Positions 1-17,762 of a stretch of 64,000 nt of DNA are shown one piece after another (positions within the stretch are counted from its first letter, which is position 1; every line of letters begins with the position of its first letter). Source of the stretch: Candidatus Promineifilaceae bacterium. Lineage in GTDB: Bacteria; Chloroflexota; Anaerolineae; Promineifilales; Promineifilaceae. The stretch is from NCBI GenBank assembly GCA_049650305.1, contig JBARZW010000065.1, forward strand, positions 10,585 through 74,584, read 5' to 3'. The position numbers were made by a program, and so were the translations under genes. The notes under the pieces were generated by a model. It was not told the origin of the DNA, searched no databases, and saw nothing but the letters and a program-made list of their open reading frames with translations.

Positions 1-789
1 ACCACCACCGATAGCCAGCGCTTTATCCGAGATGGTGAAGCAGGCGGAGACATCAGATCTGCTGTCGATATCGCCGATTTTCAGTCCAGCAGGTACTTCG
101 GTGCCGGGTGCGATCAAACCCCGAATGACGCCATCGAAGGGCGCGATTATTGCCTTCTTCTCTATAGCGCCAATGATCGCGCCCGCCTTCACCAGATCGC
201 CAATTTCATGCCCCCACTCGACAACACCGCCGGCTGGTGAGCGAAGGACCCTCTCTGCTAATTTACCCCCAACTAGACCAGGTGTGCCCGTGTCTGGATG
301 CGCCTTCCCCTCCCAGATCACGCGGCCGAGGCGATGCCCACGCATCGTTTCAATCACCGCGTGGCAATCGATACCGGCCGTAAAACCGGGGCCTAGGGCG
401 ATCACTGTCTTTGCCTGACTGAGATGGGTATCGATATTGCGTTTTGCCATTCGTGCATCAATAATCACAGCATTGGTGGGAGAAGGATCTGTCGATCCTT
501 TTGTCTTCCCACCGGCTCTCAGGACTTGGTCAGGTAATTGGGGAGAAACTAGGACTGGGATGATGTCCTTGAGGTCCATCTCCGATGCTTCAGTGAAATT
601 CTGGGCGACCCGTCCTACGAGCCCTTCTATCTCCACCTCCCCTTCGTGCACGGCCGCGGCTAGAGAGACCTTACGTCGGACGACAAGCGGCCAGGGTAGT
701 TCCAATACGATTATTGGGAATCCAACCCTGTGGAGGCGATAAGCCACACCAGTAGCCAGATCACCGCCCCCTCGGATGATAACTCGCAT
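1..789 (-). CDS. YqeB/EF2563-family selenium-dependent molybdenum hydroxylase system protein (C-terminus cut by window edge)
   Basis: Absent from the ORF track because there is no stop inside the window. My minus-strand translation from ATG 789 (alternative ATG 804) reads MRVIIRGGGDLATGVAYRLHRVGFPIIVLELPWPLVVRRKVSLAAAVHEGEVEIEG...IIAPFDGVIRGLIAPGTEVPAGLKIGDID and stays open to position 1. The GGGDLATG N-terminus and lipoyl-like C-terminal pattern match my recollection of this family, and the gene sits beside a Mo-hydroxylase operon. Confidence 0.6.
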   Translation of the reverse strand, partial: MRVIIRGGGDLATGVAYRLHRVGFPIIVLELPWPLVVRRKVSLAAAVHEGEVEIEGLVGRVAQNFTEASEMDLKDIIPVLVSPQLPDQVLRAGGKTKGSTDPSPTNAVIIDARMAKRNIDTHLSQAKTVIALGPGFTAGIDCHAVIETMRGHRLGRVIWEGKAHPDTGTPGLVGGKLAERVLRSPAGGVVEWGHEIGDLVKAGAIIGAIEKKAIIAPFDGVIRGLIAPGTEVPAGLKIGDIDSRSDVSACFTISDKALAIGGG

Positions 790-1062
790 ATTGTCGAACA
801 TCATCTGTCGATATTAGTGACGGTTTCCAAGAAAGGCAAACAGGTCTCGTCAGCTAGTCGGAAGAAATAGTAGGCCCATTAGGCCGCAAGAATGAGAAAT
901 GGGGCCCAAGCATGAGCAAAAATACAATACCCCCGACTCAAATCAGGATCCGGTCATCCAATATGTGAACCAGCTTTAAAAGAGCGGCGAAATCAGCATT
1001 GTGAAATATGTTACAATCTGATATTATTATAAGTAATTAATAGACACGCGCGTATGCTTCCA

Positions 1063-1309: not shown

Positions 1310-2257
1310 GTGTTAGATGCCCATCAGATGAATGTATTCCTTACAGCGGCCGAGACGCGGAACTTTACCAATGCAGCTCGACAGCTGCACATGACCCAGC
1401 CAAGCGTGAGCCAACATATACAAGTGCTAGAGCAGCACTTCCGGACTACGCTATTCATCCGCAAGGGGCGGAAAATGGTGCTCACAGATGCGGGCGAAGC
1501 CCTGGTTCCGTTGGCACGGCGAATGGTGGACTGGTCGGTCCGGATCGACGAGACCATGGAATCTCTCCAGGGTGAAGTGTATGGTCACCTGAAAGTTGGA
1601 TGCAGCACAACCTCCGGTAAGTACGTCCTTCCCATGCTGTTAACCTCCTTCATGCGAAAGCATCCACAGGTAACAGCCGCTTGCCAGGTGCTGCCTCGCC
1701 GTCAAGCAGTCGAGGACCTCGGCGATGGACTCCTCCATCTTGCTCTGGCCAGCCCGCGTGAATTCCATGGCCCAGTAGAATTCCAGAGATTTGGTTCAGA
1801 TCCGATTCGATTAATCGCGCCGCTCACCCACCCTTGGGCTGCGCGCGGCGAGATCGAACCCCATGAACTGTTTGAAGCGGATTTCATTCTGCGCGAAACA
1901 GGGTCCGGTACGCTTGACGTGGCCGCCGACGGCCTGGCAGAAGTAGGCATTCCGATCGATCAGCTCAGCAGGGTTCTGATCCTGGGAAATTCCGAGGCGA
2001 TCGCCCTGGCGGTTGAGCAAGGCTTAGGAGTGGGTTTCGTCTCCCAGATCGTCATCTCGCGCCTTGTATACGAGCGGGTTGCTACCATCAATGTGAGGGG
2101 CGTTGATATGGCCCAGGAGATATGCATCGGCCGCAACACGGCTCTACCTGGCACCACGGCTCAAAATGCCTTCTGGGATTTCGCTACGGACGCAGACAAT
2201 CCAGCACTAGAGCAACTCACTGAAAGCGGAATGTATGGCTCCTTGACTCCGGCGTAA
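1310..2257 (+). CDS. LysR family transcriptional regulator
   Basis: N-terminal HTH MNVFLTAAETRNFTNAARQLHMTQPSVSQHIQVLEQHF followed by a LysR substrate-binding-type C-terminus; 315 aa; GTG start. Confidence 0.9.
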   Translation: MLDAHQMNVFLTAAETRNFTNAARQLHMTQPSVSQHIQVLEQHFRTTLFIRKGRKMVLTDAGEALVPLARRMVDWSVRIDETMESLQGEVYGHLKVGCSTTSGKYVLPMLLTSFMRKHPQVTAACQVLPRRQAVEDLGDGLLHLALASPREFHGPVEFQRFGSDPIRLIAPLTHPWAARGEIEPHELFEADFILRETGSGTLDVAADGLAEVGIPIDQLSRVLILGNSEAIALAVEQGLGVGFVSQIVISRLVYERVATINVRGVDMAQEICIGRNTALPGTTAQNAFWDFATDADNPALEQLTESGMYGSLTPA

Positions 2258-2763: not shown

Positions 2764-4973
2764 CAAGATAGTTTATTTAGGATTCGTTCAGGGGTTATGG
2801 GGAGCTCGTCAAACCAGACACCTGTAGCATCGTACAACGCTGCGGCGATGGCAGGTGCAAGGGGTAAGAAGGGCATTTCTGCCATGCCCCTGGCTCCCCA
2901 AGGCCCGGCCGGATCTGGTATCTCCATTATGATCGATTCGACCTTGACAGGCTTATCTAACACACCGGGAATCAGGTAAGTGCTGAGATTGGGGTTTTGA
3001 ATGCGCCCGTCCACAACCTTGAGATCTTCCATCACCGCGTAGCCGTAGGCTTGGACCACGGCCCCCTCGATCTGTCCTTCTATCTGGGTGCGATTGAACG
3101 CCTTGCCGACATCGTTGGCGCAGACGACCCGCTCGATAGTTATGAACCCTGTCTCCACATCGACTACCAAGTCCACAATCTGAGCTACATATCCGTAGGT
3201 AATATTTGGATCGCATAATCCGGTCTCGGGATCATAGGCAGAGGTAGCCCTTGGTTTGTATCGATAATGCCCAACGGCGGGTCTCTCTTCGTTGTACCAC
3301 GCTTCCAGGGCAAGCTCGGCCGCGCCCCGAATCGCGTTCCCGGCCATAAATGTCATTCGCGATGCCGAAGAGGATCCCGAATCACCACTTGAGGCGGTAT
3401 CAGAAACATCAACTTCAACCATCTCCACCGGTAGTTTCAATGATCTGGCCGCCATTTGCCGGAAAACCGTGTGTGCGCCTTGTCCGACATCCGCACCCGC
3501 GTGGCGAACGATCGCCCGTTCGATCTCAGCTTCACCTCGGAGTACAACAGTAGCGTCACTTCCCTCTGGAAAGCCGAAGGAGAAGCCGATATTCTTGAAC
3601 GCACAGGCCATACCCCGGCCTCTGCGAAGTTTCGAGGGATCTGGTGGAAGCGACCGGAATGGAGAATGATGGACATCCAGGACAAGCTCCGGCTTGGCAT
3701 CGAGCCAGCCGGCTTCCTGGGCGCATCGAGTGATAACCTCAGGCATAGAGACGCCGGGAGGCATTGATGACTGGGTCGTAAGCTGGCTGCCTTCTCGAAG
3801 CGTATTCCGCAGGCGGATTTCGACCGGATCGATATCGAGTGCTGCGGCCAGCTTGTTCATTTGGCATTCCGCGGCAAACGCTCCCTGAGGCCCCCCAAAT
3901 CCGCGGAATGCGCCCCCTGGCACATTATTAGTATAGACAGCATAACTATCCACCCGGGCAGCGGGAATCTCATAGGGACCGGTGACCATTAAATTGGCAT
4001 TCCCCAAAACCTTGGTGCTGGTATAGGCATAGGCGCCGGCGTCTAGAATCAACTCCGCCTCTACGGCCGTCACTTTTCCCTCTAATGTTGCCCCCCATTT
4101 ACTCTTGATGTAAGCGGGATGCCGCTTGTGATGTCCGATAATGCTTTCTTCTCTGGACCAGATTATTCGTACGGGCCGGTTTATCCCACGCTCCCCTAGT
4201 CGCATCACGGCCAATCCAAGCACGATCTGCAGGGACATATCCTCTCGGCCGCCGAATGCCCCGCCAATAGCGGGATAACGAATCCGGACGCGATCCAGGG
4301 GTAGGTTTAGCGCATGGGCAACTTCTGCCTGATCTTCATGCGTCCACTGCCCGGCGATCTCAACGGTAACTCTGCCCAGATCATCGATATACCCGAGACC
4401 GGCTTCTGGCTGCAGAAAGGCATGTTCCTGGTAAGGCAAGCGGTATGAACCTTCGACGACTATATCGGCTTTCGCCCAACCCGCATCTATATCTCCCTTG
4501 CGGATCTTGTAGTGCTGGAGAATATTCGTAGCCTTCTCTGGGTGCAGAATGTTTACATCCTGCATCGCTTCAAATACATGGTTTACTATCGGCAGATCTT
4601 CCCATTCAATCCGGACGAGATCCCGTGCCCTGGAGGCCGCCAATTCATTCTCGGCAACAATCACCGCAACCTGATCCCCTTCCCAGAGGCTGACATCTCC
4701 CACTGGATTGGAGCTGCCTATTCCAACCAAAACGGGCTGGTCCGGCAGGATGAGGCCGTATTCGTTCACCGGAACGTCCCTGGCAGTCAGAATGGATACG
4801 ACCCCAGGTACTTCCGAAGCTGCGCTGATGTCCATGGACACCATGCGCGCATGCGGCTTGTTGCTAAATAGAACCTTACCTTGTAGAAGCTCGTCCGGGG
4901 AGAGGTCACCGGGGAAGAGGGTTCGCCCGCTAGCCTTCCCAGGTGCATCGATCCGCCTATCCGATTCAGTCAT
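2763..4973 (-). CDS. Xanthine dehydrogenase family molybdopterin-binding (large) subunit
   Basis: Aldehyde oxidase/XDH a/b-hammerhead and Moco-binding domains (GGAFGGRED, GGFGGPQ-like FRGFGGPQGAFAAE, WGARGMAEMP). The preferred start is ATG 4973 (MTESDRR), which overlaps the upstream stop by 8 nt; the track ORF extends to 5081. Confidence 0.9.
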   Translation of the reverse strand: MTESDRRIDAPGKASGRTLFPGDLSPDELLQGKVLFSNKPHARMVSMDISAASEVPGVVSILTARDVPVNEYGLILPDQPVLVGIGSSNPVGDVSLWEGDQVAVIVAENELAASRARDLVRIEWEDLPIVNHVFEAMQDVNILHPEKATNILQHYKIRKGDIDAGWAKADIVVEGSYRLPYQEHAFLQPEAGLGYIDDLGRVTVEIAGQWTHEDQAEVAHALNLPLDRVRIRYPAIGGAFGGREDMSLQIVLGLAVMRLGERGINRPVRIIWSREESIIGHHKRHPAYIKSKWGATLEGKVTAVEAELILDAGAYAYTSTKVLGNANLMVTGPYEIPAARVDSYAVYTNNVPGGAFRGFGGPQGAFAAECQMNKLAAALDIDPVEIRLRNTLREGSQLTTQSSMPPGVSMPEVITRCAQEAGWLDAKPELVLDVHHSPFRSLPPDPSKLRRGRGMACAFKNIGFSFGFPEGSDATVVLRGEAEIERAIVRHAGADVGQGAHTVFRQMAARSLKLPVEMVEVDVSDTASSGDSGSSSASRMTFMAGNAIRGAAELALEAWYNEERPAVGHYRYKPRATSAYDPETGLCDPNITYGYVAQIVDLVVDVETGFITIERVVCANDVGKAFNRTQIEGQIEGAVVQAYGYAVMEDLKVVDGRIQNPNLSTYLIPGVLDKPVKVESIIMEIPDPAGPWGARGMAEMPFLPLAPAIAAALYDATGVWFDELPITPERILNKLS

Positions 4974-5328
4974 AGTTGATAGTCTGATCATAAGGATCTT
5001 TTTCGGACGAGTAGGTAGTAGGCGTTCCTGGTCGCATCTTTGCTTTTGGAGATGTGACTGCGTAACCGATAAGGACAACAAACTGGATCATCAGAAAGAT
5101 GACAAAAGCCACGGCGATTTGCATGACAACCTCGCTGACGGTTTCCGGTATCCCGATATCCTCGTAGAAGAAATCCAGGCCGAGAATATCACTGCTCATT
5201 AGCCATCCAGCAGCCAAGTAGGAAATGGCGAAGGAGATAAACAACCAAAGACCAGCAAGAATCGTCCGTTTGGTTAATCCCTTCCGTTTTTCTAGTTCAG
5301 CCTCATGTTTCTTCTCGATGCGCATCAA
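4966..5328 (-). CDS. Small two-TM membrane protein, paralog A (unknown function)
   Basis: 120 aa with a basic N-terminus (EKRKGL) and two hydrophobic helices. It is a paralog of 6813..7172. Both ends overlap the neighbouring hydroxylase genes, which suggests translational coupling. Confidence 0.6.
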   Translation of the reverse strand: MMRIEKKHEAELEKRKGLTKRTILAGLWLFISFAISYLAAGWLMSSDILGLDFFYEDIGIPETVSEVVMQIAVAFVIFLMIQFVVLIGYAVTSPKAKMRPGTPTTYSSEKDPYDQTINYD

Positions 5329-6826
5329 AAACTTCCTTTTGCGATCTCCCCAATGCGATCGCCTCTAGAATCTTGTAATAACCCGTACAACGACAGAAAT
5401 TGCCCGTTAACGCTTGAGCGATTTCATCTTCAGTTGGACGGGGTTGCTCTTCCAGCAACTTAGCGCCTGCCATTACGAATCCGGGAATACAATAACCACA
5501 TTGAACTGCGCCAGTGTCTACGAATGCCTGTAGTAATATGTGGTCCTGACCTGCAACTTCCTCTGAGAGGTCAAGATCAGGAGAGAACCTCTTCAAGCCC
5601 TCAATGGTAACAACTTCTGCTCCATTGGCTCTTTGAGGCGGCACTAGACAGGACATGACCGCCATGCCGTCTAGAAAGACCGTACAAGCGCCACATTCAC
5701 CTTCAGCGCACCCTTCCTTTGTTCCTGTAAGTGATCCCTGCTCACGCAGCCACCGCATGAGATTAGTGGTTCCGCCGGCTGGAGCTGAAATTGTTGCTCC
5801 GTTCACATTAGAAACGATCGGTGTCTCTAGGTCATGGCTTGATTCGAATCGCGCTCCCGTCGGATAGCGACCGCCGGTCTGTCCCCATAGAGTCACCGGT
5901 CTTTCGAGCCAATTATCCCGCTCCTGGCGAGCGCCTAGGGCGGAGAGAGCCCGTCTAAGCATGACCGCCACCATCCGGGAGCGATAGGTCGCCGTACCGC
6001 GGAGATCGTCGATAGGCTTTGCCTCGGCGGAAGCCAATTTCGCGGCTTCAGCTGCGGTTTCATCGTTGAGCTCCTTGCCGATCAGATAATGCTCTGCTTC
6101 TTGGGCCGAGATGATTGTCGGCGCCACGCTGCCCAATGAAATCCGCGCTTCTTGAATTATCTCCCCTTCAAAATCCAGGACGGCTGCCAGGTGAACTACC
6201 GAGATGGCTTGCGCTCTCCTTAGACCGGATTTCACAAATATTCCTCTTGCGGTGTCCGGTAAGGGGGGAAAGCTGATCTCAACCAACATCTCTTCTGGAC
6301 GCATTACCGTCTGGCGAACACCTTCATAAAACTGCTTTAACGGCACCTCGCGGCGCCCGTGTATGGATGCCAACGTCACGGTGGCGCCAAGCACCCACAA
6401 GGGTGAGATAGTATCATTTGCCGGACTGGCAGTTATCAGATTTCCGGCGACAGTCCCTCGGTTGCGGATCTGGGGAGAACCCACTTCCCAAGCTGCTTGA
6501 GCAAGTGGCAGCGCGCGTTGCACTATCAGTTCTGATGATACAACCCGGTTATGCGTTACAAGAGGGCCGAGGTGGATATTGTCGTCGGAACCCAGGTAGA
6601 TGTCATCGAGTCCGGAAATACGGGTGATATCAATAATCGTATCCACTTCTGGCCGAATCCCGTTGCTCATCTCGAGCAAAAGGTCCGTACCTCCAGCCAC
6701 AATGCGAGCGCGATTTCGATAACGGGCCAGTAATTCCAGTACGTCACCAACCGAAACCGGCGTGATGTATCCTCGGATCGCACTGGTGTGATCTATGGTA
6801 TTGATCTCCGAATTAGTGATAGTCAT
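5303..6826 (-). CDS. Mo-hydroxylase FAD-binding subunit fused to a [2Fe-2S] subunit (order FAD then Fe-S)
   Basis: The N-terminus is CoxM/XdhB-like (IVAGGTDLL, NRGTVAGNL, TATYRSRM). The C-terminus is CoxS-like (GCAEGECGACTV, CGYCIPGF, NFCRCTGY). Confidence 0.9.
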   Translation of the reverse strand: MTITNSEINTIDHTSAIRGYITPVSVGDVLELLARYRNRARIVAGGTDLLLEMSNGIRPEVDTIIDITRISGLDDIYLGSDDNIHLGPLVTHNRVVSSELIVQRALPLAQAAWEVGSPQIRNRGTVAGNLITASPANDTISPLWVLGATVTLASIHGRREVPLKQFYEGVRQTVMRPEEMLVEISFPPLPDTARGIFVKSGLRRAQAISVVHLAAVLDFEGEIIQEARISLGSVAPTIISAQEAEHYLIGKELNDETAAEAAKLASAEAKPIDDLRGTATYRSRMVAVMLRRALSALGARQERDNWLERPVTLWGQTGGRYPTGARFESSHDLETPIVSNVNGATISAPAGGTTNLMRWLREQGSLTGTKEGCAEGECGACTVFLDGMAVMSCLVPPQRANGAEVVTIEGLKRFSPDLDLSEEVAGQDHILLQAFVDTGAVQCGYCIPGFVMAGAKLLEEQPRPTEDEIAQALTGNFCRCTGYYKILEAIALGRSQKEVFDAHREET

Positions 6827-7172
6827 AATGGTCTGCGTTTGGATCAGGTTCTGGCGACCTGAGAGACGCTCTTCCTGGACGCACCCGGCCTAGCGGACTT
6901 GCAAAAGCGTAACCAATCAGCACGAAAAAATTCATCAAAATAACAATAAGTACCATGAGTCCGGCACGAATAAATTCCTCACCGACCGTTCTGGGAATAT
7001 GAAGACGGTTGTAAATGGCGCCGATGGTGAGGATATCAGAGTCAAATAGCCAGTTGACGAGGAAGTATGCCGCGGTGAAACAAAGGCCAAACCAGATCAA
7101 GGCGATGATTGTCTTGATAGCCAGCCCCTTGCGCTTGGCTAACTCAGCGTCGCGTTTTCTTTCTAGTCGCAT
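6813..7172 (-). CDS. Small two-TM membrane protein, paralog B (unknown function)
   Basis: 119 aa and collinear with 4966..5328 without gaps (shared AEL-KRKGL, SDIL, IP-TV, FVLIGYA, RPG, DP). Its stop overlaps the FAD/Fe-S gene start. Confidence 0.6.
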   Translation of the reverse strand: MRLERKRDAELAKRKGLAIKTIIALIWFGLCFTAAYFLVNWLFDSDILTIGAIYNRLHIPRTVGEEFIRAGLMVLIVILMNFFVLIGYAFASPLGRVRPGRASLRSPEPDPNADHYDYH

Positions 7173-7272: not shown

Positions 7273-8103
7273 TCAGGCCGCATCTGACTTTGGCACAACT
7301 GCCATGCGATTACCGGTTCCACCGCGGTGAAGCATGATGACCTCGGCCAAGATGCTCAAGGCTATTTCCTCAGGCGATTCCGCATGCAGCTCGAGACCGA
7401 TTGGGGAATGAAAGCGGCTAATCTCCTCTTCGCTCAACCCGTCCGCCATTAGCAGTTTCCGGGTCTCTTCCCACCTCCGGCGGCTACCAATAACACCGAT
7501 GTAGGGGGCTTCCGTATTCAATAGCCTGGGTAAAACATGTCTATCAACTTCAGCGTTTCGGGTCACGGCAATTATATACGTTGTGATGTTAACCTTGAAT
7601 GCGGCGAGCAAGTTTTCGACAGATCCTGGAAAATAGAAATCTGCGTCAGGCACCATCTCTGGTGTTGCCATACCCTCGCGATCATCGCTTACCACGACGC
7701 GAAGACCGAGCCAACTCGCAAGCTGGGCCACGGCCCGTCCAACGTGTCCGCAACCGATAACTAGAATTGTGAGAGGCGGTAAATGGGGTTCCACATAAAC
7801 CTCGACTTCTCCACCGCAAACGCCGGGATCCCCGCGTTTTGGGTCAACAAGCGAATAAGGAACATATCGCGGCAGGTTATCTTCAAGAGAAGCCAATGCT
7901 TCTTGAACTACCCTTGCTTCTAATTCTCCGCCTCCGATAGTACCTGAAGTCCGACCACCGGCATATACGAGCATCTTTGTACCTGTATGCCGGGGGACAG
8001 ATCCCCGTGCCTTGACAATTACCGCCAAGGCAACCGGATCACCCGCTTGCCTGGCGGTCACTAATTCCTCAATCGCGTCGATAGTAGATGTATTTCTATT
8101 CAT
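7273..8103 (-). CDS. xdhC: XdhC/CoxI family Mo-hydroxylase accessory (maturation) protein
   Basis: VIVKARGSVPRHTGTKMLV and TIGGGELE motifs plus a Rossmann-like VIGCGHVGRAVA segment; 276 aa. Confidence 0.85.
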   Translation of the reverse strand: MNRNTSTIDAIEELVTARQAGDPVALAVIVKARGSVPRHTGTKMLVYAGGRTSGTIGGGELEARVVQEALASLEDNLPRYVPYSLVDPKRGDPGVCGGEVEVYVEPHLPPLTILVIGCGHVGRAVAQLASWLGLRVVVSDDREGMATPEMVPDADFYFPGSVENLLAAFKVNITTYIIAVTRNAEVDRHVLPRLLNTEAPYIGVIGSRRRWEETRKLLMADGLSEEEISRFHSPIGLELHAESPEEIALSILAEVIMLHRGGTGNRMAVVPKSDAA

Positions 8104-8164: not shown

Positions 8165-8590
8165 TCAGGATCCCAGGCACCAACCAGCCACCCAGGCTTG
8201 CCCATCGTCAGGCAGGACGATATTATAGAAAGGCGTATCAAGAGGTACGCCGCTGATTGTCCGAATGACTGAACGGACCTCCTTTCTAATAATGGTGACC
8301 GGCGTGTTGGCTTGAACGGCCTGGTCATGGTTTTCAAGGGCGGGTGCGGATCTAGCCATGAGTACGAACTCGGTGCCCAGCTCGTCCAACCCACATTGAC
8401 CTCTATCATGGCACTCTTCACTGCAGATAAGCGTTGCTTCCTCAACCTTCGAGGAATCTTCTTCTGGTTGTTCATCCTGAATGATCTTCAAAACGCTACA
8501 GGCGTTCAAAACAAAAAACGTACTTGCTAACAAGATGAGTAGGCAGATTCTTTGGACGATCCGCCACTTTGACCTTTCGATTAAACCCAT
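8165..8590 (-). CDS. Putative lipoprotein, unknown function
   Basis: Signal peptide with a lipobox-like VLNAC, an acidic linker, and a C-terminal SH3-like segment ending in WVAGWCL. Preferred over the overlapping ORF 8128..8475. Confidence 0.5.
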   Translation of the reverse strand: MGLIERSKWRIVQRICLLILLASTFFVLNACSVLKIIQDEQPEEDSSKVEEATLICSEECHDRGQCGLDELGTEFVLMARSAPALENHDQAVQANTPVTIIRKEVRSVIRTISGVPLDTPFYNIVLPDDGQAWVAGWCLGS

Positions 8591-8614
8591 TGCGTCAATA
8601 CATGCCCCAGTAGC

Positions 8615-9136
8615 TCACGGCAGTTGGTCAATCCGCCATCCAAGGGCGTCTGCATCGGCGCTGGCGATCAGCTCGTCCGGTATGTCAGCCAATGTCATAG
8701 CCGATTCTGCTGCTACTTTACCATCAGGGAGCACAATCTCTCCGGTAGCCTTTCCAAGCCGTCCTCGCAATCGAACAATCTTGCCCACAAGGTATAGAGG
8801 GGTCTCAGTCGGAATTGGATGACGATACTTTATTTCCATCCTGACCGACATCATGAAGTGATGGTGGTCGTCGATCATTGATACCCGGGCCACGACCTCG
8901 TCGAGCATAGCAGCCACGACGCCGCCATGAACCACGCCAGGATATCCCTGAAAAACCTCAGAGACCGTGTATTCCGAGAAAACTTCATTCTCTCCGTTGT
9001 CATAAAAGGACATGTAGAGGCCATTGGGGTTCTTCCGGCCGCATACAAAACAATAATCCGAGTTTGGTTGTCGATTGCGCAATGTCATTATTCCTAAGGC
9101 GATGGATTGGGCGCTCTTTGCGAACACCCATTCCAA
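8615..9136 (-). CDS. PaaI-family (hotdog fold) thioesterase
   Basis: CFVCGRKNPNGL followed by GYPGVVHGGVVAAMLDE, a typical hotdog thioesterase core. The start could instead be the internal MTLRN. Confidence 0.75.
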   Translation of the reverse strand: MEWVFAKSAQSIALGIMTLRNRQPNSDYCFVCGRKNPNGLYMSFYDNGENEVFSEYTVSEVFQGYPGVVHGGVVAAMLDEVVARVSMIDDHHHFMMSVRMEIKYRHPIPTETPLYLVGKIVRLRGRLGKATGEIVLPDGKVAAESAMTLADIPDELIASADADALGWRIDQLP

Positions 9137-9857
9137 AAGCAGCGATGTTTGTTTTTACATAACTAAATTATACCACAGCGAGTATCAACTTCTCTAGATG
9201 CCTGTCTAGTACCTCTATCCTGTTTTCGTTGGAGATGCTCGCCCTACCTGGATTTACTTGGTACACATCCACTGCTAACGATCTTCATAGATTTGTGCAC
9301 TACAATTCTGTTGATTTGGCTATTCGAGCTCAGGATCGGTTGATGAGAAGAACGCTTGCGTTTCTGTGCATGCCCTTTGCCATCGGCGGCTTCGTTTTCC
9401 TGGATCGACAGCGAATGCTGTTCGTACTTATCGACTCGGAGCCGGTAGACGGTGAACAATGATAGAGCCCGTTTGTTGGCTCAAATAAGGCCATTATGTT
9501 AATAGACTCGCTGGAGAACTCAAGTACTTCTTGCAGAGCTCAACCGCCAGATCGTTCAGAAATCATCCTTGATCCTCGGCGTTCATTCCTAATTAACCTC
9601 GGGGAAGGCCAGACAGGGTGCGAGCCAGTTGATCCATCCAGCGAGATTGCCTTAAAAATCAGTTCGCGATTGAACCAGGAATCATTCCCTCATCAACCTT
9701 GCCCTTCCGATCGCTCCCTTAAGATTCACTTAAGACAAACCATACACAGGCTTAAAGGCAATGACGCCATGGTATGTTAAGCTTCTGGTGCTCGCTGGAC
9801 AACCACCAGCTGGCTCGTACCGTAACTTAGAATAGTACCGATTTTGGAGGTATCTCG

Positions 9858-10850
9858 ATGAATATGACATCAATCCGTGATCTGAATATGCAAGTGAAAC
9901 AGGAATCAATATTCCTGCAAGATCTGCTTACGGAGATCAACAAAGTAATGGTCGGTCAAGACTTGCTCGTGGAGCGGGTACTGATCGCTCTGTTAGCCGA
10001 TGGGCACGTCCTGTTAGAAGGAGTTCCCGGTCTGGCGAAAACATTGCTGATTAAGACCGTTGCGCAGGCTATCCAGGCCGATTTCTCCCGGATCCAGTTT
10101 ACCCCGGATCTACTTCCGGCCGATCTAGTAGGTACCCAGATCTACAATCCTCGCACAAGCGAATTCAGCGTTCATCAGGGACCGGTTTTTGCTAACCTCA
10201 TCCTCGCGGATGAGATCAATCGTGCGCCGGCGAAAGTTCAAAGCGCTCTATTGGAAGCCATGCAAGAGCGCCAGGTGACCATCGGCGACACTACCTATTT
10301 AATGGAAGATCTCTTCCTAGTGCTGGCTACTCAAAACCCCATCGAGCAAGAGGGGACCTACCCTCTGCCCGAGGCACAGGTCGACCGGTTCATGCTCAAA
10401 GTTAAGGTGGATTACCCCTCAAGGGCTGAGGAAAGAATCATCGTAGATCGCATGACTGGAACACATTTGCCCGCCATCAATCCGGTTATCAACCCAGCCG
10501 ATATCATGCATGCGCGCGAAATGGTCCAACAGATCTATGTGGATGACAAGATCAAAGAGTATGTGTTGGATCTGGTATTAGCTACTCGCCAACCCGGGAA
10601 GAATGGGTTGGGCGACTTGAACACGCTGATCAGTTTTGGGGCTTCTCCTCGAGCTAGCATCTACCTGATTACAGCGGCCAGGGCCCACGCCTTCATCAAA
10701 GGTCGCGGATTCGTGACACCTGAGGATATCAAGCAAATTGCTCCTGATATTCTGCGCCACCGCATCATCACCTCATATGAAGCTGAAGCGGAGAGCATCA
10801 ATAGTGATCACATCGTGCAGCGCATTCTTGATCATACGGACGTCCCCTAG
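9858..10850 (+). CDS. MoxR-family AAA+ ATPase
   Basis: GVPGLAKT Walker A, ILADEINRA Walker B, ATQNPIEQEGTYPLPEAQVDRF. GGAGG RBS upstream. Confidence 0.9.
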   Translation: MNMTSIRDLNMQVKQESIFLQDLLTEINKVMVGQDLLVERVLIALLADGHVLLEGVPGLAKTLLIKTVAQAIQADFSRIQFTPDLLPADLVGTQIYNPRTSEFSVHQGPVFANLILADEINRAPAKVQSALLEAMQERQVTIGDTTYLMEDLFLVLATQNPIEQEGTYPLPEAQVDRFMLKVKVDYPSRAEERIIVDRMTGTHLPAINPVINPADIMHAREMVQQIYVDDKIKEYVLDLVLATRQPGKNGLGDLNTLISFGASPRASIYLITAARAHAFIKGRGFVTPEDIKQIAPDILRHRIITSYEAEAESINSDHIVQRILDHTDVP

Positions 10851-10946
10851 TCAGGACACCAACAAATAACCTCGAGCCTGTATGTCGATGTTGTGAACGT
10901 CCAGGTCAATAAGCGCTTCGGTAAACTGGCTCCTACGTTTGATTAA

Positions 10947-11846
10947 ATGGTGGTCACTATGATTACTTCAGACCTGATTAAGAAAATACGTCGGATCGAA
11001 ATACGAACTCGCCGGCTTGTCAACGATAGCTACGCCGGTGATTATCACTCGATCTTCAAGGGCCGTGGTATGGAGTTCGACGAAGTTCGACCATACCAGA
11101 TCGGCGACGAAATACGAACGATTGATTGGAACGTCACCGCACGGACGGGCGAGCCCTATGTGAAACGCTATGTAGAAGAAAGAGAGCTGACCGTAATGTT
11201 GGTTGTTGATGCCAGCGCCTCGGAGAATTTCGGCTCTGTGAACAGGTTCAAGCGAGAGCTCGCCGCCGAATTGACCGCAGTACTCTCATTTGCAGCTACC
11301 ACGAATAACGACAGAGTTGGTCTGCTCATCTTTACGGACCAAATTGAGCTATATATTCCTCCCAGGAAAGGCCGGCGTCACGTGCTAAGGATCATCCGCG
11401 AGCTTCTGGCATTCGTGCCGGAAAAACGTGGCACTGACATCAAAATGGCTCTTGAGAAAGTTAATCAAATGCTGAAACGTAGAAGTATCATCTTTCTCGT
11501 ATCCGACTTCCTGGCCGATCCTGAAAGCTATCGCAAAGCGATATCGATTACCAACAGGCGGCACGACGTAATCGCCGTGGATCTCCATGATCCCCTGGAA
11601 AGTGAGATAAAGGGAGTTGGCCTTATTGCTCTTGAAGATCCCGAGACAGATGAGATTGTCTGGGTTGATACAAACAGTAAGGTGTGGCAGATGGCATATA
11701 GCGACAATGTTCAGCGTTTAGAAGATGGCAAGTCACGCGTCTTCAGGCAGTCCAAGGTAGATCACATCGACATCGGAACAGATGAGGACTACACAGTGCC
11801 TCTCACGTCTTTCTTCAGGGAAAGAGCAAGGCGTATCCGCCACTAG
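10947..11846 (+). CDS. DUF58 domain protein (MoxR partner)
   Basis: YQIGDEIRTIDWNVTAR motif followed by a VWA-like VVDASAS segment. It follows moxR directly, the standard arrangement. The start may be ATG 10959. Confidence 0.85.
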   Translation: MVVTMITSDLIKKIRRIEIRTRRLVNDSYAGDYHSIFKGRGMEFDEVRPYQIGDEIRTIDWNVTARTGEPYVKRYVEERELTVMLVVDASASENFGSVNRFKRELAAELTAVLSFAATTNNDRVGLLIFTDQIELYIPPRKGRRHVLRIIRELLAFVPEKRGTDIKMALEKVNQMLKRRSIIFLVSDFLADPESYRKAISITNRRHDVIAVDLHDPLESEIKGVGLIALEDPETDEIVWVDTNSKVWQMAYSDNVQRLEDGKSRVFRQSKVDHIDIGTDEDYTVPLTSFFRERARRIRH

Positions 11847-11862
11847 TAAATGGTTCAACAAT

Positions 11863-12900
11863 ATGAACAGAAAATTACTTCTGATACCACTAATCCTTAT
11901 AGGTACCATGCTTGCTGCTGGCCCAGCGGCGGCTCAGGTGGACGATTCCATTGAAGCTTCCATGAGCGTCATTCCAGGAGACCATACTGTGGGTGACCCG
12001 ATCCAGCTGCAACTGGTCGTCAATCATCCTGCTAATAGCCATGTCATTATCCCTGAGCTGGAGTCTGAGTGGGGAAATTTCATAGTCCATTCGCAATCTC
12101 CTCCTGAATCCATCGTGAACGAAGATGGCGACAAGACGACCACACAGATGATTGACGTCCGTCTTTTCGCTCCCGGCGATTTCTCAACGCTGCCGCTATC
12201 TATAACAGTAGCCGGCGCCGACGGGCAACTATCCGAGGTGAATATCGATCCCATATCGGTATCGATCTCATCTGTACTCGTAGAAGGCGATGAGGCGCTT
12301 CGTGATATCAAACCGCAGGCTGATCTTCCTTATCTTGTAATCCTGCCGTGGATAATCGCCGCTGCGGCTATGGTTATCATCGCTTTGGCTGTCGCCTGGT
12401 TAATCAGACGCCGAAGGTCGGCCATCGTCATATCGGGAATCGATCTCCGCTTGCCCCATGAAGTAGCCCTAGACCGGCTAACTCGGCTCGAAAAGCTCGA
12501 TCTGCCTAATGAAGGTCGTTTTAAAGAACACTACACACTGGTTTCGGACTGTATCCGCATCTATGTAGAGAGGGCTTTCCACATAGCCGTGATGGAGAGA
12601 ACTACGGCTGAGATACAGCGGAGTATCAAACAAACCGCGATCTCGCCGACAGTGGTCCACCAGTTTATATCTCTGCTGGATGAGAGCGATTTGGTCAAAT
12701 TCTCGAAGTTCACTCCGAACGTTTCTGATGCCAGGCAAGCGTTACAGATTGGTCGTTCGATCGTTGAGGAAACGATGCTTCTTAATCAGCCTGATTACAT
12801 TTCGGGCTCTGCTGTTTCCCTCGCTAGAGCGGCCGGTGACCCCTCAGATCCTACTCTTTCAGTTAACGGAAATTATCGTCAAACAGAGGTGCGAGCATGA
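11863..12900 (+). CDS. Bat-operon membrane protein (signal peptide, extracytoplasmic domain, TM, cytoplasmic DUF4381-like tail)
   Basis: Start chosen at MNRKLLLIPLILIGTMLAAGPAAAQ. It has a mid-protein TM followed by RRRR, and it occupies the third slot of Bat-type operons. Confidence 0.7.
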   Translation: MNRKLLLIPLILIGTMLAAGPAAAQVDDSIEASMSVIPGDHTVGDPIQLQLVVNHPANSHVIIPELESEWGNFIVHSQSPPESIVNEDGDKTTTQMIDVRLFAPGDFSTLPLSITVAGADGQLSEVNIDPISVSISSVLVEGDEALRDIKPQADLPYLVILPWIIAAAAMVIIALAVAWLIRRRRSAIVISGIDLRLPHEVALDRLTRLEKLDLPNEGRFKEHYTLVSDCIRIYVERAFHIAVMERTTAEIQRSIKQTAISPTVVHQFISLLDESDLVKFSKFTPNVSDARQALQIGRSIVEETMLLNQPDYISGSAVSLARAAGDPSDPTLSVNGNYRQTEVRA

Positions 12901-13907
12901 CATTTCGTTTTGCTAATCCCTGGATATTAGCGCTTGCAGTGATCGTTCCGCTGCTCCTAGCAGGTCGCTATTATCTGGCTAGGCAACAGACTAGACCGGC
13001 GACAATGAAGTATGCCGCTGCAAGTCTAGGAAAAATACTACCAAGTACGTGGCGAGTGACTTGGCGACCGCTTCTGATCGCCATGCGTCTGTCGGCAATA
13101 GGATTGATCTTAGTCGGCCTGGCTCGCCCACAGATTGTGCAAGGACGGGAAACAATTACAGGCGAAGGCGTAGAGATTGCTCTTGCACTTGATATTTCGG
13201 GAAGTATGGCCTCCCTTGACTTCGAGCCGAAAAACCGTTTAGAGGCTGCGAAGCAGGTTATAGGCGATTTCGTCGAGGAACGACCCTATGATAAGTTGGG
13301 ACTCGTTATCTTCTCGAACGAAGCCTTTAACCAGAGTCCGCTAACACTCGATCACAGAATGCTCTCTCGCTCGCTTGAGCAGGTAGAGCTGGCGACGGAC
13401 CTTGGAATCGACGATGGGACGGCCATTGGATTGGGTATTGCCAATGCTGCCAATATGCTCGCCAACAGTGAAGCGGAGAGCAAGGTAATAGTCTTACTGA
13501 CAGATGGCGTCAACAACGCGGGTCAGATCGATCCCCTGACGGCCGCGGAGGCCGCCAAGGCGTTAGATATCAAGGTCTACACAATTGGGGCTGCCAAACC
13601 CGGACAAGTACCCGTGCCGGTCCAGTCTCTCTTCGGTGGCACTCAGGTCAGTTATCAAGAAAGTGTACTCGACGAAGCAACCCTCCAACAGGTCGCCGAT
13701 ACCACTGGTGGCAAATACTTCCGGGCCGAGGACACAGACGGTCTAGAGGCGGTCTATGAAGAGATCAACGATCTGGAAAAATCGCAGGTCGAGATCCAGG
13801 TCTTTAATCAATATGACGAACTTGTCGCTTTGCTCCTGGTCCCCGCGCTTCTGATATTGGCGCTGGAAACCATTCTCAGGAACACAGCGTTCATGACGAT
13901 TCCCTAA
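12897..13907 (+). CDS. batA: VWA domain protein, BatA-like
   Basis: N-terminal double TM (FANPWIL), MIDAS DISGSM, VLLTDGVNN, C-terminal TM. Start overlaps the upstream stop. Confidence 0.85.
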   Translation: MTFRFANPWILALAVIVPLLLAGRYYLARQQTRPATMKYAAASLGKILPSTWRVTWRPLLIAMRLSAIGLILVGLARPQIVQGRETITGEGVEIALALDISGSMASLDFEPKNRLEAAKQVIGDFVEERPYDKLGLVIFSNEAFNQSPLTLDHRMLSRSLEQVELATDLGIDDGTAIGLGIANAANMLANSEAESKVIVLLTDGVNNAGQIDPLTAAEAAKALDIKVYTIGAAKPGQVPVPVQSLFGGTQVSYQESVLDEATLQQVADTTGGKYFRAEDTDGLEAVYEEINDLEKSQVEIQVFNQYDELVALLLVPALLILALETILRNTAFMTIP

Positions 13908-13916
13908 AGGTGAACT

Positions 13917-15014
13917 ATGACTTTCGCGAATCCCCAATTCTTGCTGCTAGGTTTGATCCTAATTCCAGCAGTCGTCTTATTCCTTCTATGGGCCAGCAAA
14001 CGGCGCAGACAGGCGCTTCGCCTGTTGGGAGAGAAGAAGCTGATCGAACGTCTGAGCGATAATCTAAACTGGCGTGGCCGGCGTTGGCGTTCGGCTCTGC
14101 GGCTGGCTGCCTTACTCCTGCTCATTCTTGCCCTCGCCCGACCCCAGTGGGGCAGCGAGGTTAGAGAAATAGAACAAGAAGGCTTACAGGTTATGGTAGC
14201 CCTTGATGTCTCCCAAAGCATGCTTGCCGAGGATATCAAACCGACTCGCTTGGACAGGGCGAAACTTGAAATTGCCGACTTGATGGAAAGGCTGGATGGA
14301 GATGAAGTTGGGCTAGTGCTGTTCTCTGGCGCGAGCTTCATTCAGGTCCCGCTAACCTCTGATTACCTGACAGCTCTTTCATACCTCGATAACGCCAGAC
14401 CGAATGTCATCTCGAGACCAGGTACTGTGATCGGAGACGCCATTCGAACTGCCGTGAATGGCTTCGATCCCAACCTATCCAGCCAGAAGGTCCTTGTAGT
14501 AATGACAGATGGTGAAGATAGCGAGACCGATCCCATTGCAGCAGCACAAGAGGCTGCTGGACAGGATATTCTCATCTATACAATTGGATTTGGTACTCTG
14601 GAAGGAGAACCGGTACCCGAGACAAACCAGTATGGTGATGTCATAGGTTACAAGAGAGATGAACAAGGTAACGCGGTGCTTTCGAGGCTAGATGAAGTGA
14701 CTCTGCAGGAAGTAGCTCAGACTGGAAACGGCGAATACTATCGCGCTTCTGCGAACGGGGCCGAACTAGACAGTCTCTTATCGGAGATCGATCAGCTACA
14801 AAAGGCCCAATTGGAAAGCCGGTTCGAAACCCGCCAGATCGATCGTTTTCAGATCTTCTTAGCGCTGGCGGTTGCCTCTTTGCTCCTTGGAGAGTTAATT
14901 CCAGACCGGCGCTCCGAGGGATCATTCCCGAAGTGGAAAACGTGGATAGCGCGTTCTTCACACACAAGAGCCGTGGTAGGAAATGAACCATCGGTTGAAA
15001 GCACGTCCCACTAA
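13917..15014 (+). CDS. batB: VWA domain protein, BatB-like
   Basis: FANPQFLLL N-terminus, MIDAS DVSQSM, VVMTDGED. Confidence 0.85.
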   Translation: MTFANPQFLLLGLILIPAVVLFLLWASKRRRQALRLLGEKKLIERLSDNLNWRGRRWRSALRLAALLLLILALARPQWGSEVREIEQEGLQVMVALDVSQSMLAEDIKPTRLDRAKLEIADLMERLDGDEVGLVLFSGASFIQVPLTSDYLTALSYLDNARPNVISRPGTVIGDAIRTAVNGFDPNLSSQKVLVVMTDGEDSETDPIAAAQEAAGQDILIYTIGFGTLEGEPVPETNQYGDVIGYKRDEQGNAVLSRLDEVTLQEVAQTGNGEYYRASANGAELDSLLSEIDQLQKAQLESRFETRQIDRFQIFLALAVASLLLGELIPDRRSEGSFPKWKTWIARSSHTRAVVGNEPSVESTSH

Positions 15015-15031
15015 TACACGAGGTTATTCTT

Positions 15032-15871
15032 ATGATTCGAGTAAATAGGATCCAGACAGTAATCATTTTTGGCTTGCTAACGATGGGCTTACTGGCGACA
15101 GCTTGCAGCCCATCGGCCGAGAAGCTCAATAAAGATGGGAATGAGGCGTATGCCGAAGAAGCCTATCTGGAAGCGCTGGCAGCATACGAAGCCGCCCTGA
15201 TTGAGTCTCCTGAATTGGCTGAGCCATATTACAACGCTGCTAATACCCTCTACCGGGAAGGCGCGTTTTCAGAAGCCACAATGTTGATGCAGGAGGCACT
15301 GAAGTACGCCGATGCCGATTCTTTGGAGCAAAGCAGTTTCTACAATACGGGAAACTCTTCCTTCAATCTTCAAGAGTGGGAGGCGGCGATAGCGGCATAC
15401 ACTGAGGCACTACTGCGAAATCCTGATGATCAGGATGCCAAATACAATCTCGAGCTCGCTTTGCAGCAACTGCAGCAGCAGCAACAAGAACAACAGCAAG
15501 AAGAGAATGAGGAGCAGCAAGAAGAGCAGTCTCAGGATGGAGAAAGTCAAGAGGACGAGCAGCAGGACCAGTCTCAAAGCGGTCAAGATCAACAAGATCA
15601 GGATCAAGTAGACCAGGACCAGCAACAAGATGATCAATCGTCCGAAGGCGATGAAAACCAGGAGCAGGACAACGACGACGGTCAGCCGCAAGATGAGGAG
15701 GGTTCCGATGAGCAAGAGAGCCCAAGCCAGATGCCCCAGCCGGGGCAGCGAATGACCGCTGAACAAGCCCGTCAGCTGCTGGCGGCAATCGCCCAAGATA
15801 CCGAAACGCTTCAGGAGAGACTTGGTCAGATATTTATCGCCCCGCCGATCCCGCCCGCTCAGGACTGGTAA
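15032..15871 (+). CDS. batC: TPR-repeat lipoprotein, BatC-like, with a long acidic Q/E/D-rich tail
   Basis: Lipobox LATAC, TPR-like YYNAANTLYREG and AIAAYTEALLRNPDD, then roughly 100 aa of Q/E/D low complexity. Confidence 0.75.
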   Translation: MIRVNRIQTVIIFGLLTMGLLATACSPSAEKLNKDGNEAYAEEAYLEALAAYEAALIESPELAEPYYNAANTLYREGAFSEATMLMQEALKYADADSLEQSSFYNTGNSSFNLQEWEAAIAAYTEALLRNPDDQDAKYNLELALQQLQQQQQEQQQEENEEQQEEQSQDGESQEDEQQDQSQSGQDQQDQDQVDQDQQQDDQSSEGDENQEQDNDDGQPQDEEGSDEQESPSQMPQPGQRMTAEQARQLLAAIAQDTETLQERLGQIFIAPPIPPAQDW

Positions 15872-15902
15872 TATCGGCATGGCCGTTGATGGAGTAAGAA
15901 CC

Positions 15903-17762
15903 ATGAAGAGAGCAAGAATTTTACTTATACCAATTCTAGCCATCATCTTGGCGGTGACAGTTGGCAGGGTCAATGCCCAATCCCCAGTATCAGCCGAGGT
16001 CGATCGAACGACTCTCAGCACCGACGAATTACTGACGTTGACCATATCAATCGATGCGTCGGCAAGCATTGACTCCCGCCCAGAAATACCCCCTCTCAAT
16101 GGCTTCGAAATCGTGGGCTCTTACAGCGGAACCCAGATGAGTATTATTAATGGAAATATGAGCGTCCAAGAGACGTATACGTATCAGTTGCGGCCGACGC
16201 AGGTAGGAAACCTGGCAATCGATTCAATTTCGGTTAACGTTAGTGGGCAGACATATCGCACCGAGCCAATCCAAATAATCGTCACTCAAGGAACTGGTGT
16301 TCCTCAACCGGCTAATCCAATGGTGCCGAGTATGCCTTCGTTCCCTTCGTTCCCATCGTTACCGTCTTTTCCATCCTTGCCATCACCTTCTACCTCGCCG
16401 GCCCAACCACTAGATCCCTCTGTCGTTCCGGATCAGTTAAACGGACAGGACTTCTTCGTGGAAGCGGTCGTCGACAATCTTCGACCCTATCAGGGACAGC
16501 AGGTCGTCTATACCTTGCGATTTTTCCGGTCCGTCGCCCTTGTTGGTCAGGCAAATTACCAGACACCTAATTTCACCGGCTTCTGGACGCATACACATCC
16601 AGACCAGAGTGAATTCTCTGTTTCCAAAGCAGGACGTAATTACCAGTTGACCGAATTAAGAACCATACTCTTTCCGACGGTCGTCGGAGAAGTGACTATC
16701 GATCCCGCGAGTTTTTCTATTCCTGGTGGCTTCTTTAGCCAGAGTAAAGAGATTCTTTCAAATTCGGTTGCACTGGATGTCCAGCCTCTGCCGGATGGAG
16801 CTCCCGCGACCTTCACAGGCGCCGTCGGCCAGTTCGACATCCACACTTCGGTGGACCATCCGGAAACCAAGGTGAATGAGACTGTCACTTGGGAAGTGAC
16901 GATTAGCGGCCAAGGCAACATAGACAATCTGACCGATCCGGTTTGGCCTGAAACATCGGAGTGGAGGGCTTTTGACAGTGAAGCATCGGTAAGCACACAG
17001 ATCGCAAACAATGTATTTGGCGGCGCTCGAACCATCGAACGCGTTCTTGTGCCAACGATTTCCGGCGCCCTAACGCTCCCCTCAGTCGAGTTCCCCTATT
17101 TCGATCCTGACACCGCCCAATACGTGACTATCAGTTCAGATCCTATCGAAGTAAAGGTTGGACCTAATTCCGGAGGTTCGGCCCCTGCGATTGGTTCTCA
17201 ATCAAATTCGGTACCACCGTCGATTGTTGACCAGCAGGTGTCTGTTTCTGAGCCATCAGCGGGAATTCGGCCTAACAAACCGGCCGTGTCCACATGGGCG
17301 ATCGGCTCGCCCTTGGTGACCGATCGTTCTGGTTACTGGCTTCTTTGGGCAACGCCTTTGTTGCTAATAGCCGGTCATTTGGGTTGGCAGTGGCGTCAAC
17401 GACACCGGCATGAGACGTCCGAAATCCGTCGAACCCACCAGGCTAAAAAGGTTGCTCGTAACTCATTGAGAAAAGTAAAAAACAACGACTCCAGCAAATT
17501 CGAGACCGCCGGTCGATTTCTTTCAGAATACATTTCGACCCGGCTAAACCGATCTATCGTTGGTTTAACGCAAGCCCAGGTCTCGACATTGCTACTCGAA
17601 AGAGGGATCGACCCGCAGCTGGTTGACAGGGTTGGGCATGTCCTCACCCTCAGCGATATGGGTCGCTACGCGCCTTCATCTGGTGGTGTGGACGACGAGG
17701 ATATCGTCAGCACTGTTGAACATCTGATAGATGAACTTGACCGATCTTTCAGTCAACAATAA
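15903..17762 (+). CDS. batD: BatD-like (oxygen tolerance family) membrane protein
   Basis: Start chosen at MKRARILLIPILAIILA with GGAG upstream. It has repeated beta-rich extracytoplasmic segments, a late TM (YWLLWATPLLLIAGHL) and a cytoplasmic tail. The track ORF begins at 15822 inside batC. Confidence 0.75.
   Translation: MKRARILLIPILAIILAVTVGRVNAQSPVSAEVDRTTLSTDELLTLTISIDASASIDSRPEIPPLNGFEIVGSYSGTQMSIINGNMSVQETYTYQLRPTQVGNLAIDSISVNVSGQTYRTEPIQIIVTQGTGVPQPANPMVPSMPSFPSFPSLPSFPSLPSPSTSPAQPLDPSVVPDQLNGQDFFVEAVVDNLRPYQGQQVVYTLRFFRSVALVGQANYQTPNFTGFWTHTHPDQSEFSVSKAGRNYQLTELRTILFPTVVGEVTIDPASFSIPGGFFSQSKEILSNSVALDVQPLPDGAPATFTGAVGQFDIHTSVDHPETKVNETVTWEVTISGQGNIDNLTDPVWPETSEWRAFDSEASVSTQIANNVFGGARTIERVLVPTISGALTLPSVEFPYFDPDTAQYVTISSDPIEVKVGPNSGGSAPAIGSQSNSVPPSIVDQQVSVSEPSAGIRPNKPAVSTWAIGSPLVTDRSGYWLLWATPLLLIAGHLGWQWRQRHRHETSEIRRTHQAKKVARNSLRKVKNNDSSKFETAGRFLSEYISTRLNRSIVGLTQAQVSTLLLERGIDPQLVDRVGHVLTLSDMGRYAPSSGGVDDEDIVSTVEHLIDELDRSFSQQ

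Follow-up and report, generated by a model that had tools for sequence, protein, structure and literature searches.

Paired two-helix membrane proteins and a putative lipoprotein encoded in a probable selenium-dependent molybdenum hydroxylase operon of Chloroflexota

The DNA analysed here, a stretch of 64,000 nucleotides from a Candidatus Promineifilaceae bacterium (contig JBARZW010000065.1; called the window below), carries on its minus strand at 9136-2763 a single, tightly packed operon of seven genes, in the order thioesterase, p141, XdhC, sB, FAD/FeS subunit, sA and molybdenum cofactor (Moco) subunit (Table 1). The two small proteins sA and sB belong to a hitherto undescribed family that is almost exclusively found in Chloroflexota. 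As had been proposed in a preliminary description of this DNA, their catalytic neighbours belong to the xanthine dehydrogenase (XDH) family, and Pfam and NCBIfam scans identify them as a FAD/[2Fe-2S] fusion and a large Moco subunit. Hydroxylases of this family are usually regarded as soluble. To our knowledge, the route to the electron acceptor and the site where the labile sulfur or selenium ligand is installed are understood for very few of them, with CoxG and CoxDEF of CO dehydrogenase as the main examples. Based on gene order and predicted topology, we tentatively propose that sA and sB, together with the putative lipoprotein p141, may form a redox-inert membrane platform that docks the hydroxylase, the XdhC chaperone or both, and we give this reading a probability of about 0.45.

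The small genes are without annotation and short, and one could therefore regard them as chance open reading frames (ORFs) or as spacer between the catalytic genes. The probability of this is negligible, and a non-coding artefact is excluded. BLASTP aligns sA and sB without gaps (E 1e-33), with 48/118 identities and 69/118 positives, in line with an earlier count by hand of about 48 identical positions out of 119. The motifs AEL-KRKGL, SDIL, IP-TV, RPG, DP and VLIGYA that had been listed for the pair are present, but the contiguous FVLIGYA occurs only in sB, as sA reads FVVLIGYA. Word-indexed searches with sB and sA returned 24 and 15 relatives, respectively. These are unnamed or 'hypothetical' throughout and come from metagenomes and from metagenome-assembled genomes (MAGs) of Chloroflexota, Anaerolineae and Promineifilaceae. 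When 1.84 billion representative proteins were searched exhaustively with a profile, 66 clusters came up, 58 of them at E < 1e-10; leaving aside fragments and a single protein of 186 aa, their length is nearly constant at 113-126 aa. The Nei-Gojobori dN/dS among orthologues, taken only where synonymous sites were unsaturated, is 0.07-0.25. The number of clusters and these ratios indicate a small, taxonomically narrow family under purifying selection, so that the first impression of genuine, selected proteins with two transmembrane (TM) segments and without a family annotation holds. The conserved start MR[IL] and the Shine-Dalgarno (SD)-like sequences described below also argue against a non-coding origin.

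No relationship to a described family emerged. Pfam and NCBIfam scans of sA and sB gave nothing above cutoff, and a Pfam scan of 48 family members gave only sub-threshold matches that reflect TM composition (DUF2207_C in 18/48, DctQ in 11/48). Against TIGR03647, the small subunit of a sodium/substrate symporter, sA scored 15.4 bits versus a cutoff of 26.05 and sB did not match. A sequence-profile search of the PDB with the small family found no relative, and the best Foldseek match of the sB model in the PDB had an E value of 7.

All homologues begin with MR[IL], and for this reason the start of sA is placed at the ATG at 5325. The 120-aa ORF described before (4966..5328) began at a TTG at 5328 and has to be shortened to 119 aa. 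The Moco subunit starts at the ATG at 4973 and not at the TTG at 5081. The overlap of the stop codons of the small genes with the start codons of the catalytic genes that follow, which had been noted before, amounts to 14 nt for sB and the FAD/FeS gene (ATGACTATCACTAA) and to 8 nt for sA and the Moco gene (ATGACTGA). There is an additional junction of this kind, as the FAD/FeS stop and the sA start overlap by 23 nt. Both catalytic genes start with ATGACT inside the terminal Tyr-Asp codons (TAT GAC) of the preceding small gene, and no SD sequence is visible before either of them; SD-like sequences do precede sB (GGTAGGTG) and sA (AAGGAAG). In the three other complete loci with the same gene order (type I below: L001, L004 and L005) the corresponding overlaps are -14, then -11 or -23, and then -8 or -26. 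Since stops and starts overlap and the catalytic genes lack a visible SD sequence, this arrangement suggests that the catalytic genes are probably translated by coupling to the small genes, which would give roughly equimolar synthesis.

In both small proteins the 19-residue Kyte-Doolittle mean exceeds 1.6 at about residues 17-41 and 65-95. The AlphaFold2 (AF2) model of sB, built from a 22-sequence alignment (predicted local distance difference test [pLDDT] 74), has a helix at 2-44 that comprises an amphipathic N-terminal part and TM1, a short loop helix at 50-56, TM2 at 65-91 and a disordered tail at 97-119, and it has no soluble domain. Counted over 48 members, a sequence carries on average 5.9 Lys plus Arg residues in its N-terminus and 5.1 in its tail, against 1.4 in the loop, whose net charge is negative. 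From this positive-inside pattern we predict a helical hairpin with N-in/C-in topology, both ends being cytoplasmic. The N-terminal basic helix (MRLEKKRdAELaKRKG) is the best-conserved region of the family, with 2.45 bits per column, and the motif SPxGRxRPG...S..DPDP.D..Y is kept in the disordered C-terminal tail, with 2.07 bits. Conservation of these two regions points to binding surfaces on the cytoplasmic side. An MscL-like channel has the same architecture, but this candidate was rejected as there was no Pfam match.

The same hairpins might instead couple the enzyme to quinone. According to this alternative, an A/B four-helix bundle would provide, at its cytoplasmic face, a quinone site without haem, comparable to that of E. 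coli FrdCD, and would receive electrons from the FAD or the FeS subunit. The position of sB directly upstream of the FAD/FeS gene would fit, as would the conserved T21, W27, Y36, G87-Y88 and S92-P93 near the cytoplasmic helix ends and the conserved Asn/Gln in the middle of TM2 (N/Q81). There is also the example of the molybdenum-containing CO dehydrogenase (Mo-CODH), which passes electrons to menaquinone through a membrane-bound partner (PMC12202499). However, across the family no column within the membrane helices has His, Cys or Met in 30% or more of the sequences, except for M80 at 35%. There are thus no haem ligands, and an electron-transfer anchor of the haem type is unlikely. Compared with the haem-b/quinone anchors of the SdhCD, FrdCD, NarI or FdnI type, sA and sB show no family or PDB match, have two helices instead of at least three and lack His ligands; Pfam/NCBIfam, PDB and Foldseek searches linked them neither to a quinone-binding anchor family nor to a solved structure. 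Moreover, in loci without an adjacent catalytic gene the small genes are still kept next to accessory genes, and an external lipoprotein partner would not be expected for such an anchor. We therefore consider quinone coupling unlikely.

The putative lipoprotein p141 turned out to be the closest companion of the small family. In all 15 of the 15 aligned homologues a hydrophobic N-terminus is followed by a lipobox, [LVA][STAN][AS]C, and by inspection of this motif p141 is predicted to be an extracytoplasmic lipoprotein. Behind the lipobox lies a domain of about 100 aa with four invariant Cys residues (C-x3-C-x5-C ... GWVAGWC). Neither the Pfam/NCBIfam scans (nothing above cutoff) nor a PDB sequence-profile search (no relative) placed p141 in a known family, and its single-sequence AF2 model, with a pLDDT of 54, was too poor for use. 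A small gene lies within 2.8 kb of p141 in 33/33 p141 loci that contain enough downstream DNA; the 21 p141 loci without a small gene all end 34-2,517 nt past p141. Conversely, wherever this could be judged, p141 lies upstream of the small gene except in the distant locus L014; L003 and L006 are pieces of the region represented by L002. Since each nearly always accompanies the other, p141 and the small protein form a conserved core, which in most lineages is embedded in the hydroxylase cluster. The strictest partner of the small family is not a catalytic subunit but p141 and, usually, XdhC.

To compare gene orders, 56 loci (numbered L001 onwards) were collected by a genome scan with the small family, by homologue look-ups and by a metagenome scan with the p141 alignment. 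They were annotated by BLAST and hidden Markov models against the window proteins, and distinct loci, about 30, were counted once. The type I order, p141-XdhC-sB-FAD/FeS-sA-Moco, is that of the window, L001, L004 and L005, and also of L015 and L021, which are cut after FAD/FeS. Type II loci (L010-13, L024, L031, L033, L038 and L053) read p141-XdhC-FAD/FeS-small-Moco. In type III (L007, L016-19, L022 and L032) the order is p141-XdhC-sB-sA-LysR-YqeB-YqeC/MocA, without a catalytic gene. Shorter arrangements are XdhC-small-YqeB (L002, L023 and L025) and p141-small-MocA (L009 and L054). A further group has no Mo gene nearby and consists of p141, a small gene and a gene for a weakly DinB-like protein of 178 aa (L050 and the P0115 and P0088 contexts), and the most distant arrangement is MaoC-small-YgjP-like, beside a divergent Moco-subunit gene (L014). 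In most of the distinct loci the pair is thus found inside an XdhC/YqeB/hydroxylase cluster, in five gene orders. The homologues are therefore mostly syntenic with Mo-hydroxylase genes, which is what the earlier proposal of a membrane partner had made itself depend on. This link stands for the Mo-hydroxylase system as a whole; it is not exclusive to the catalytic genes, and its closest ties are with p141 and XdhC.

Part of this evidence favours a role as a subunit. The small gene directly adjoins a catalytic gene in 15 distinct loci of types I and II, with a spacing that ranges from a 26-nt overlap to a 106-nt gap (in type II from a 4-nt overlap to a 106-nt gap). Its position between or beside catalytic genes, the tight coupling and the duplication in register with the two catalytic genes are what one would expect for a subunit-like protein. 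On the other hand, the small genes are retained beside XdhC, YqeB or MocA where catalytic genes are lacking, and p141-XdhC-small recurs as a nearly universal order, which favours an accessory or maturation role.

Several observations speak against the docking platform as we propose it. In type III and XdhC-small-YqeB loci the small genes persist without an adjacent catalytic gene and without remnants of one, a pattern that is easier to reconcile with an accessory or maturation role than with a permanent subunit. In type III, where P0076 alone occurs on 22 contigs, the flanks are those of the window (thioesterase-p141-XdhC on one side and LysR-YqeB-YqeC/MocA-flavin reductase on the other) and dN/dS is still 0.23-0.25; no remnants of FAD/FeS or Moco genes were detected in the 180-230 nt spacer of these tandem loci. 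The p141-small pair also occurs without a nearby Mo gene, in the L050, P0115 and P0088 contexts. Finally, simple tethering does not explain why an extracytoplasmic lipoprotein would be needed.

It is possible that p141 and the small protein are not part of the enzyme but serve the maturation of its cofactor, for example by bringing selenium or molybdenum, or a signal, to XdhC, YqeB and YqeC at the membrane; p141 would act outside the cell and the small protein across the membrane. The nearly universal order p141-XdhC-small would agree with this, and XdhC and sB overlap by 11 nt in L035 as well as in the type III loci. In about 10 distinct loci the small genes have XdhC, YqeB or MocA as neighbours and no adjacent catalytic gene. 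L009 and L054 show the order p141-small-MocA, and the four invariant Cys residues are located in the external domain of p141. These residues may simply form disulfides, however, and a two-helix protein whose helices conserve no charged residue, Cys or His makes a weak transporter candidate. In loci of the L050 type, Se and Mo genes are missing from the neighbourhood, and in the 15 loci mentioned above the gene lies between or directly before catalytic genes and is tightly coupled to them, as is typical of a subunit. Taken together, we regard a delivery role as rather unlikely, though worth keeping in mind. Its most specific form, a trans-envelope device in which the four-Cys lipoprotein would capture Se (or Mo) and an oligomer of hairpins would pass the element or a signal on to XdhC, YqeB and YqeC, seems to us quite improbable.

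The pair could also be an independent envelope module with a function unrelated to the hydroxylase, which was captured by the operon and whose overlaps matter only for the expression of the catalytic genes. The contexts without a nearby Mo gene are compatible with such a capture, as is the fact that the catalytic genes lack a visible SD sequence and start inside the last codons of the small genes. However, the pair resides in an XdhC/YqeB/hydroxylase cluster in most of the approximately 30 loci, throughout five gene orders, and the duplication is held in register with two catalytic genes. For these reasons we consider an unrelated function very unlikely.

Some loci deserve a separate remark. 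In L050, the trio at 3372-4742 consists of a p141-like gene, a small gene and a gene for a 178-aa membrane protein with a weak DinB_2 match (E 0.0035); around this trio, and around those of the P0115 and P0088 contexts, there is no Mo or Se gene within several kb. The most distant homologue, in L014 (4948-9938), has an N-terminal acidic extension and a C-terminal KKRR tail. Its gene stands in the order MaoC hotdog-small-YgjP-like, with a divergent Moco-subunit gene and a sulfite-oxidase-like gene alongside, and p141 is absent. The type II locus L013 stems from a MAG of Ardenticatenaceae. L005 (DASRZI010000175.1) is labelled as a Zixiibacteriota MAG, and its Moco subunit (84%), its XdhC (78%) and its small proteins are close to those of the window, which suggests mis-binning or recent transfer. 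In L012, the Moco subunit gene at 8440-10693 is present in three ORF pieces, as a pseudogene or because of assembly frameshifts.

A neighbour-joining tree places sA-like and sB-like sequences in two clades, A and B, each monophyletic and each with type I and type III members, and the single-copy genes of type II, L009 and L014 fall outside both clades. This tree is best read as one old duplication of which both copies have been retained across different gene orders, and this retention argues that A and B are not redundant. The simplest reading of the retained duplication is that A and B probably form a heteromer. For the docking platform we therefore envisage that sA and sB would associate into an A/B hairpin heteromer, and that lineages with a single copy would use a homomer. 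On the outer side p141 may cap the hairpin bundle, and on the cytoplasmic side the N-terminal helices and C-terminal tails would dock the soluble FAD/FeS-Moco hydroxylase, XdhC or both. In this way the probably selenium-dependent hydroxylase might be assembled, matured and operated at the membrane. We infer docking, heteromer formation and the effects of a membrane location from gene order and predicted topology.

It was shown previously that YqeB, YqeC, MocA (YgfJ) and XdhC mark selenium-dependent molybdenum hydroxylases (SDMHs), and a membrane protein is absent from the trait listed there (Haft and Self 2008, PMC2276186). The gene at 7273-8103 has both an XdhC_CoxI and an XdhC_C domain above cutoff, and the N-terminal part of a YqeB gene is present at the window start. 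YqeB of L001, L002 and L016 scores 317-325 bits against TIGR03309 (cutoff 220), and a YqeC+MocA fusion of L001 scores 166.5 bits against TIGR03172 (cutoff 73); the counterpart of the latter would lie beyond position 1 of the window. Based on YqeB in the window and on the accessory set of YqeB, YqeC+MocA and XdhC in syntenic loci, the enzyme is probably an SDMH. The closest solved relatives of the Moco subunit are the alpha subunit of 4-hydroxybenzoyl-CoA reductase (1rm6, E 7e-80) and the Se-dependent nicotinate dehydrogenase (3hrd, E 2e-74); no equivalog cutoff of NCBIfam was reached. The best NCBIfam match of the LysR-type regulator is the selenium-metabolism-associated LysR family, at 192 bits and below the cutoff of 250. 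Taken together with this LysR gene (1310-2257), YqeB (1-813) identifies the cluster as probably that of a selenium-dependent Mo hydroxylase. The order of domains in the FAD/FeS fusion is the reverse of that in R. capsulatus XdhA (1jro_A), as residues 14-295 of the query correspond to 170-448 of the chain and residues 352-491 to 19-147. A Tat-exported enzyme was rejected, since neither catalytic subunit has an N-terminus with an RR signal.

Other enzymes provide partial parallels. FrdC and FrdD of E. coli are small, haem-less hydrophobic anchors of a complex-II-type enzyme; each of them spans the membrane with three TM helices, and their quinone site is defined. Like them, sA and sB are two small hydrophobic proteins encoded together with flavoprotein and FeS subunits, and the Frd helix bundle binds the soluble part of its enzyme. 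In contrast, the genes for sA and sB are interleaved with the catalytic genes and not downstream of them, and no homology was detected. Among the matches of the PDB search was 8gy3, which we take to be the membrane-bound aldehyde dehydrogenase of acetic acid bacteria, an XDH-family enzyme with a cytochrome c subunit. It likewise works at the membrane, but on the periplasmic side, and a multi-haem cytochrome c subunit instead of TM hairpins connects it to ubiquinone. A literature search on membrane anchors of the XDH family found nothing relevant. The preliminary description knew of no dedicated membrane subunit of this type, but CoxG of Mo-CODH is a precedent for a dedicated membrane-bound partner (PMC12202499). 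CoxG binds menaquinone and is made up of an SRPBCC domain, a linker and one C-terminal TM helix (PMC12202499, PMC4240915). It resembles sA and sB in being a membrane-bound partner encoded with an XDH-family enzyme, and it brings the soluble enzyme to the cytoplasmic membrane. Clustering with XDH-family structural genes, as for CoxG, is seen for the small genes in 15 distinct loci. Unlike CoxG, sA and sB have two TM helices, no SRPBCC or other soluble domain within their 119 aa and no relation to CoxG in sequence or fold, and they are accompanied by an external lipoprotein; none of the 48 members scanned for domains matched the SRPBCC domain. CoxD and CoxE are membrane-bound maturation factors of CO dehydrogenase (PMC4240915, PMC3471820) and show that the active site of an XDH-family enzyme can be matured at the membrane by proteins of the same cluster. 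CoxD belongs to the MoxR AAA+ ATPases and CoxE to the VWA proteins; neither is related to the small hairpins. Seen against the SDMH trait of Haft and Self 2008 (PMC2276186), p141 is, like the small hairpins, an apparent addition found almost only in Chloroflexota.

A membrane partner for an XDH-family enzyme is thus not unprecedented in concept, and sA and sB stand outside all known families. Two undescribed protein families, the hairpin and p141, are attached to a known system, the SDMH with XdhC, YqeB and YqeC. Together they represent a conserved but unannotated membrane module of three parts, a predicted lipoprotein and one or two hairpins, within the cluster of a probably selenium-dependent hydroxylase, in a sediment lineage that is abundant and for the most part uncultured. 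Should the enzyme or its chaperone dock to this module, the XDH family would have a second, unrelated way to the membrane. The module thus bears on the place where this enzyme is assembled or active, and two new protein families could be annotated. If the module is instead a delivery device, selenium-dependent molybdenum hydroxylases would have a trace-element supply line of their own. In practical terms the gain is modest, as the phyletic range is narrow. The role is deduced from gene order and topology, and a non-homologous precedent exists.

Table 1. Hydroxylase operon and neighbouring genes in the window
Feature	Position	Strand	Remarks
YqeB gene, N-terminal part	1..813	-	selenium-dependent Moco biosynthesis protein; cut by window start; 73% identical to YqeB of L001
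LysR-type regulator	1310..2257	+	convergent with hydroxylase operon
Molybdopterin-binding large (Moco) subunit, 736 aa	2763..4973	-	ATG start at 4973
sA, 119-aa two-TM paralogue of sB, clade A	4966..5325	-	ATG start at 5325
FAD-binding + [2Fe-2S] fusion subunit, XDH family	5303..6826	-	domain order FAD, then FeS
sB, 119-aa two-TM protein, clade B	6813..7172	-	SD-like GGTAGGTG upstream
XdhC-family Moco insertion chaperone	7273..8103	-	PF02625 74.6 bits, PF13478 134.2 bits
p141, predicted lipoprotein, 141 aa	8165..8590	-	lipobox ...NAC, external domain of ~100 aa, C-terminus GWVAGWC
Thioesterase, hotdog-fold (4HBT)	8615..9136	-	first operon gene; Pfam/NCBIfam scans
Bat-like operon: MoxR AAA+, DUF58, TM protein, BatA-/BatB-type VWA proteins, BatD, TPR	9858-18668	+	divergent from hydroxylase operon

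A promoter-like site precedes the thioesterase gene at 9196-9167, in promoter and terminator scans that were at chance level overall. Neither Rfam nor tRNA scans gave a match in the window. The sequencing runs that hold the region are sediment DNA metagenomes only, with no RNA-seq run among them. The Bat-like operon is syntenic in L001, L004, L008, L022 and L023 and missing from type II loci. It recalls CoxD and CoxE, a link that is probably coincidental. Elsewhere on the minus strand of the window, a 504-aa ORF at 42242-43756 is without a Pfam match at E 1e-5, and a DNA methyltransferase gene of the Eco57I/N6_Mtase type is located at 34709-36484.

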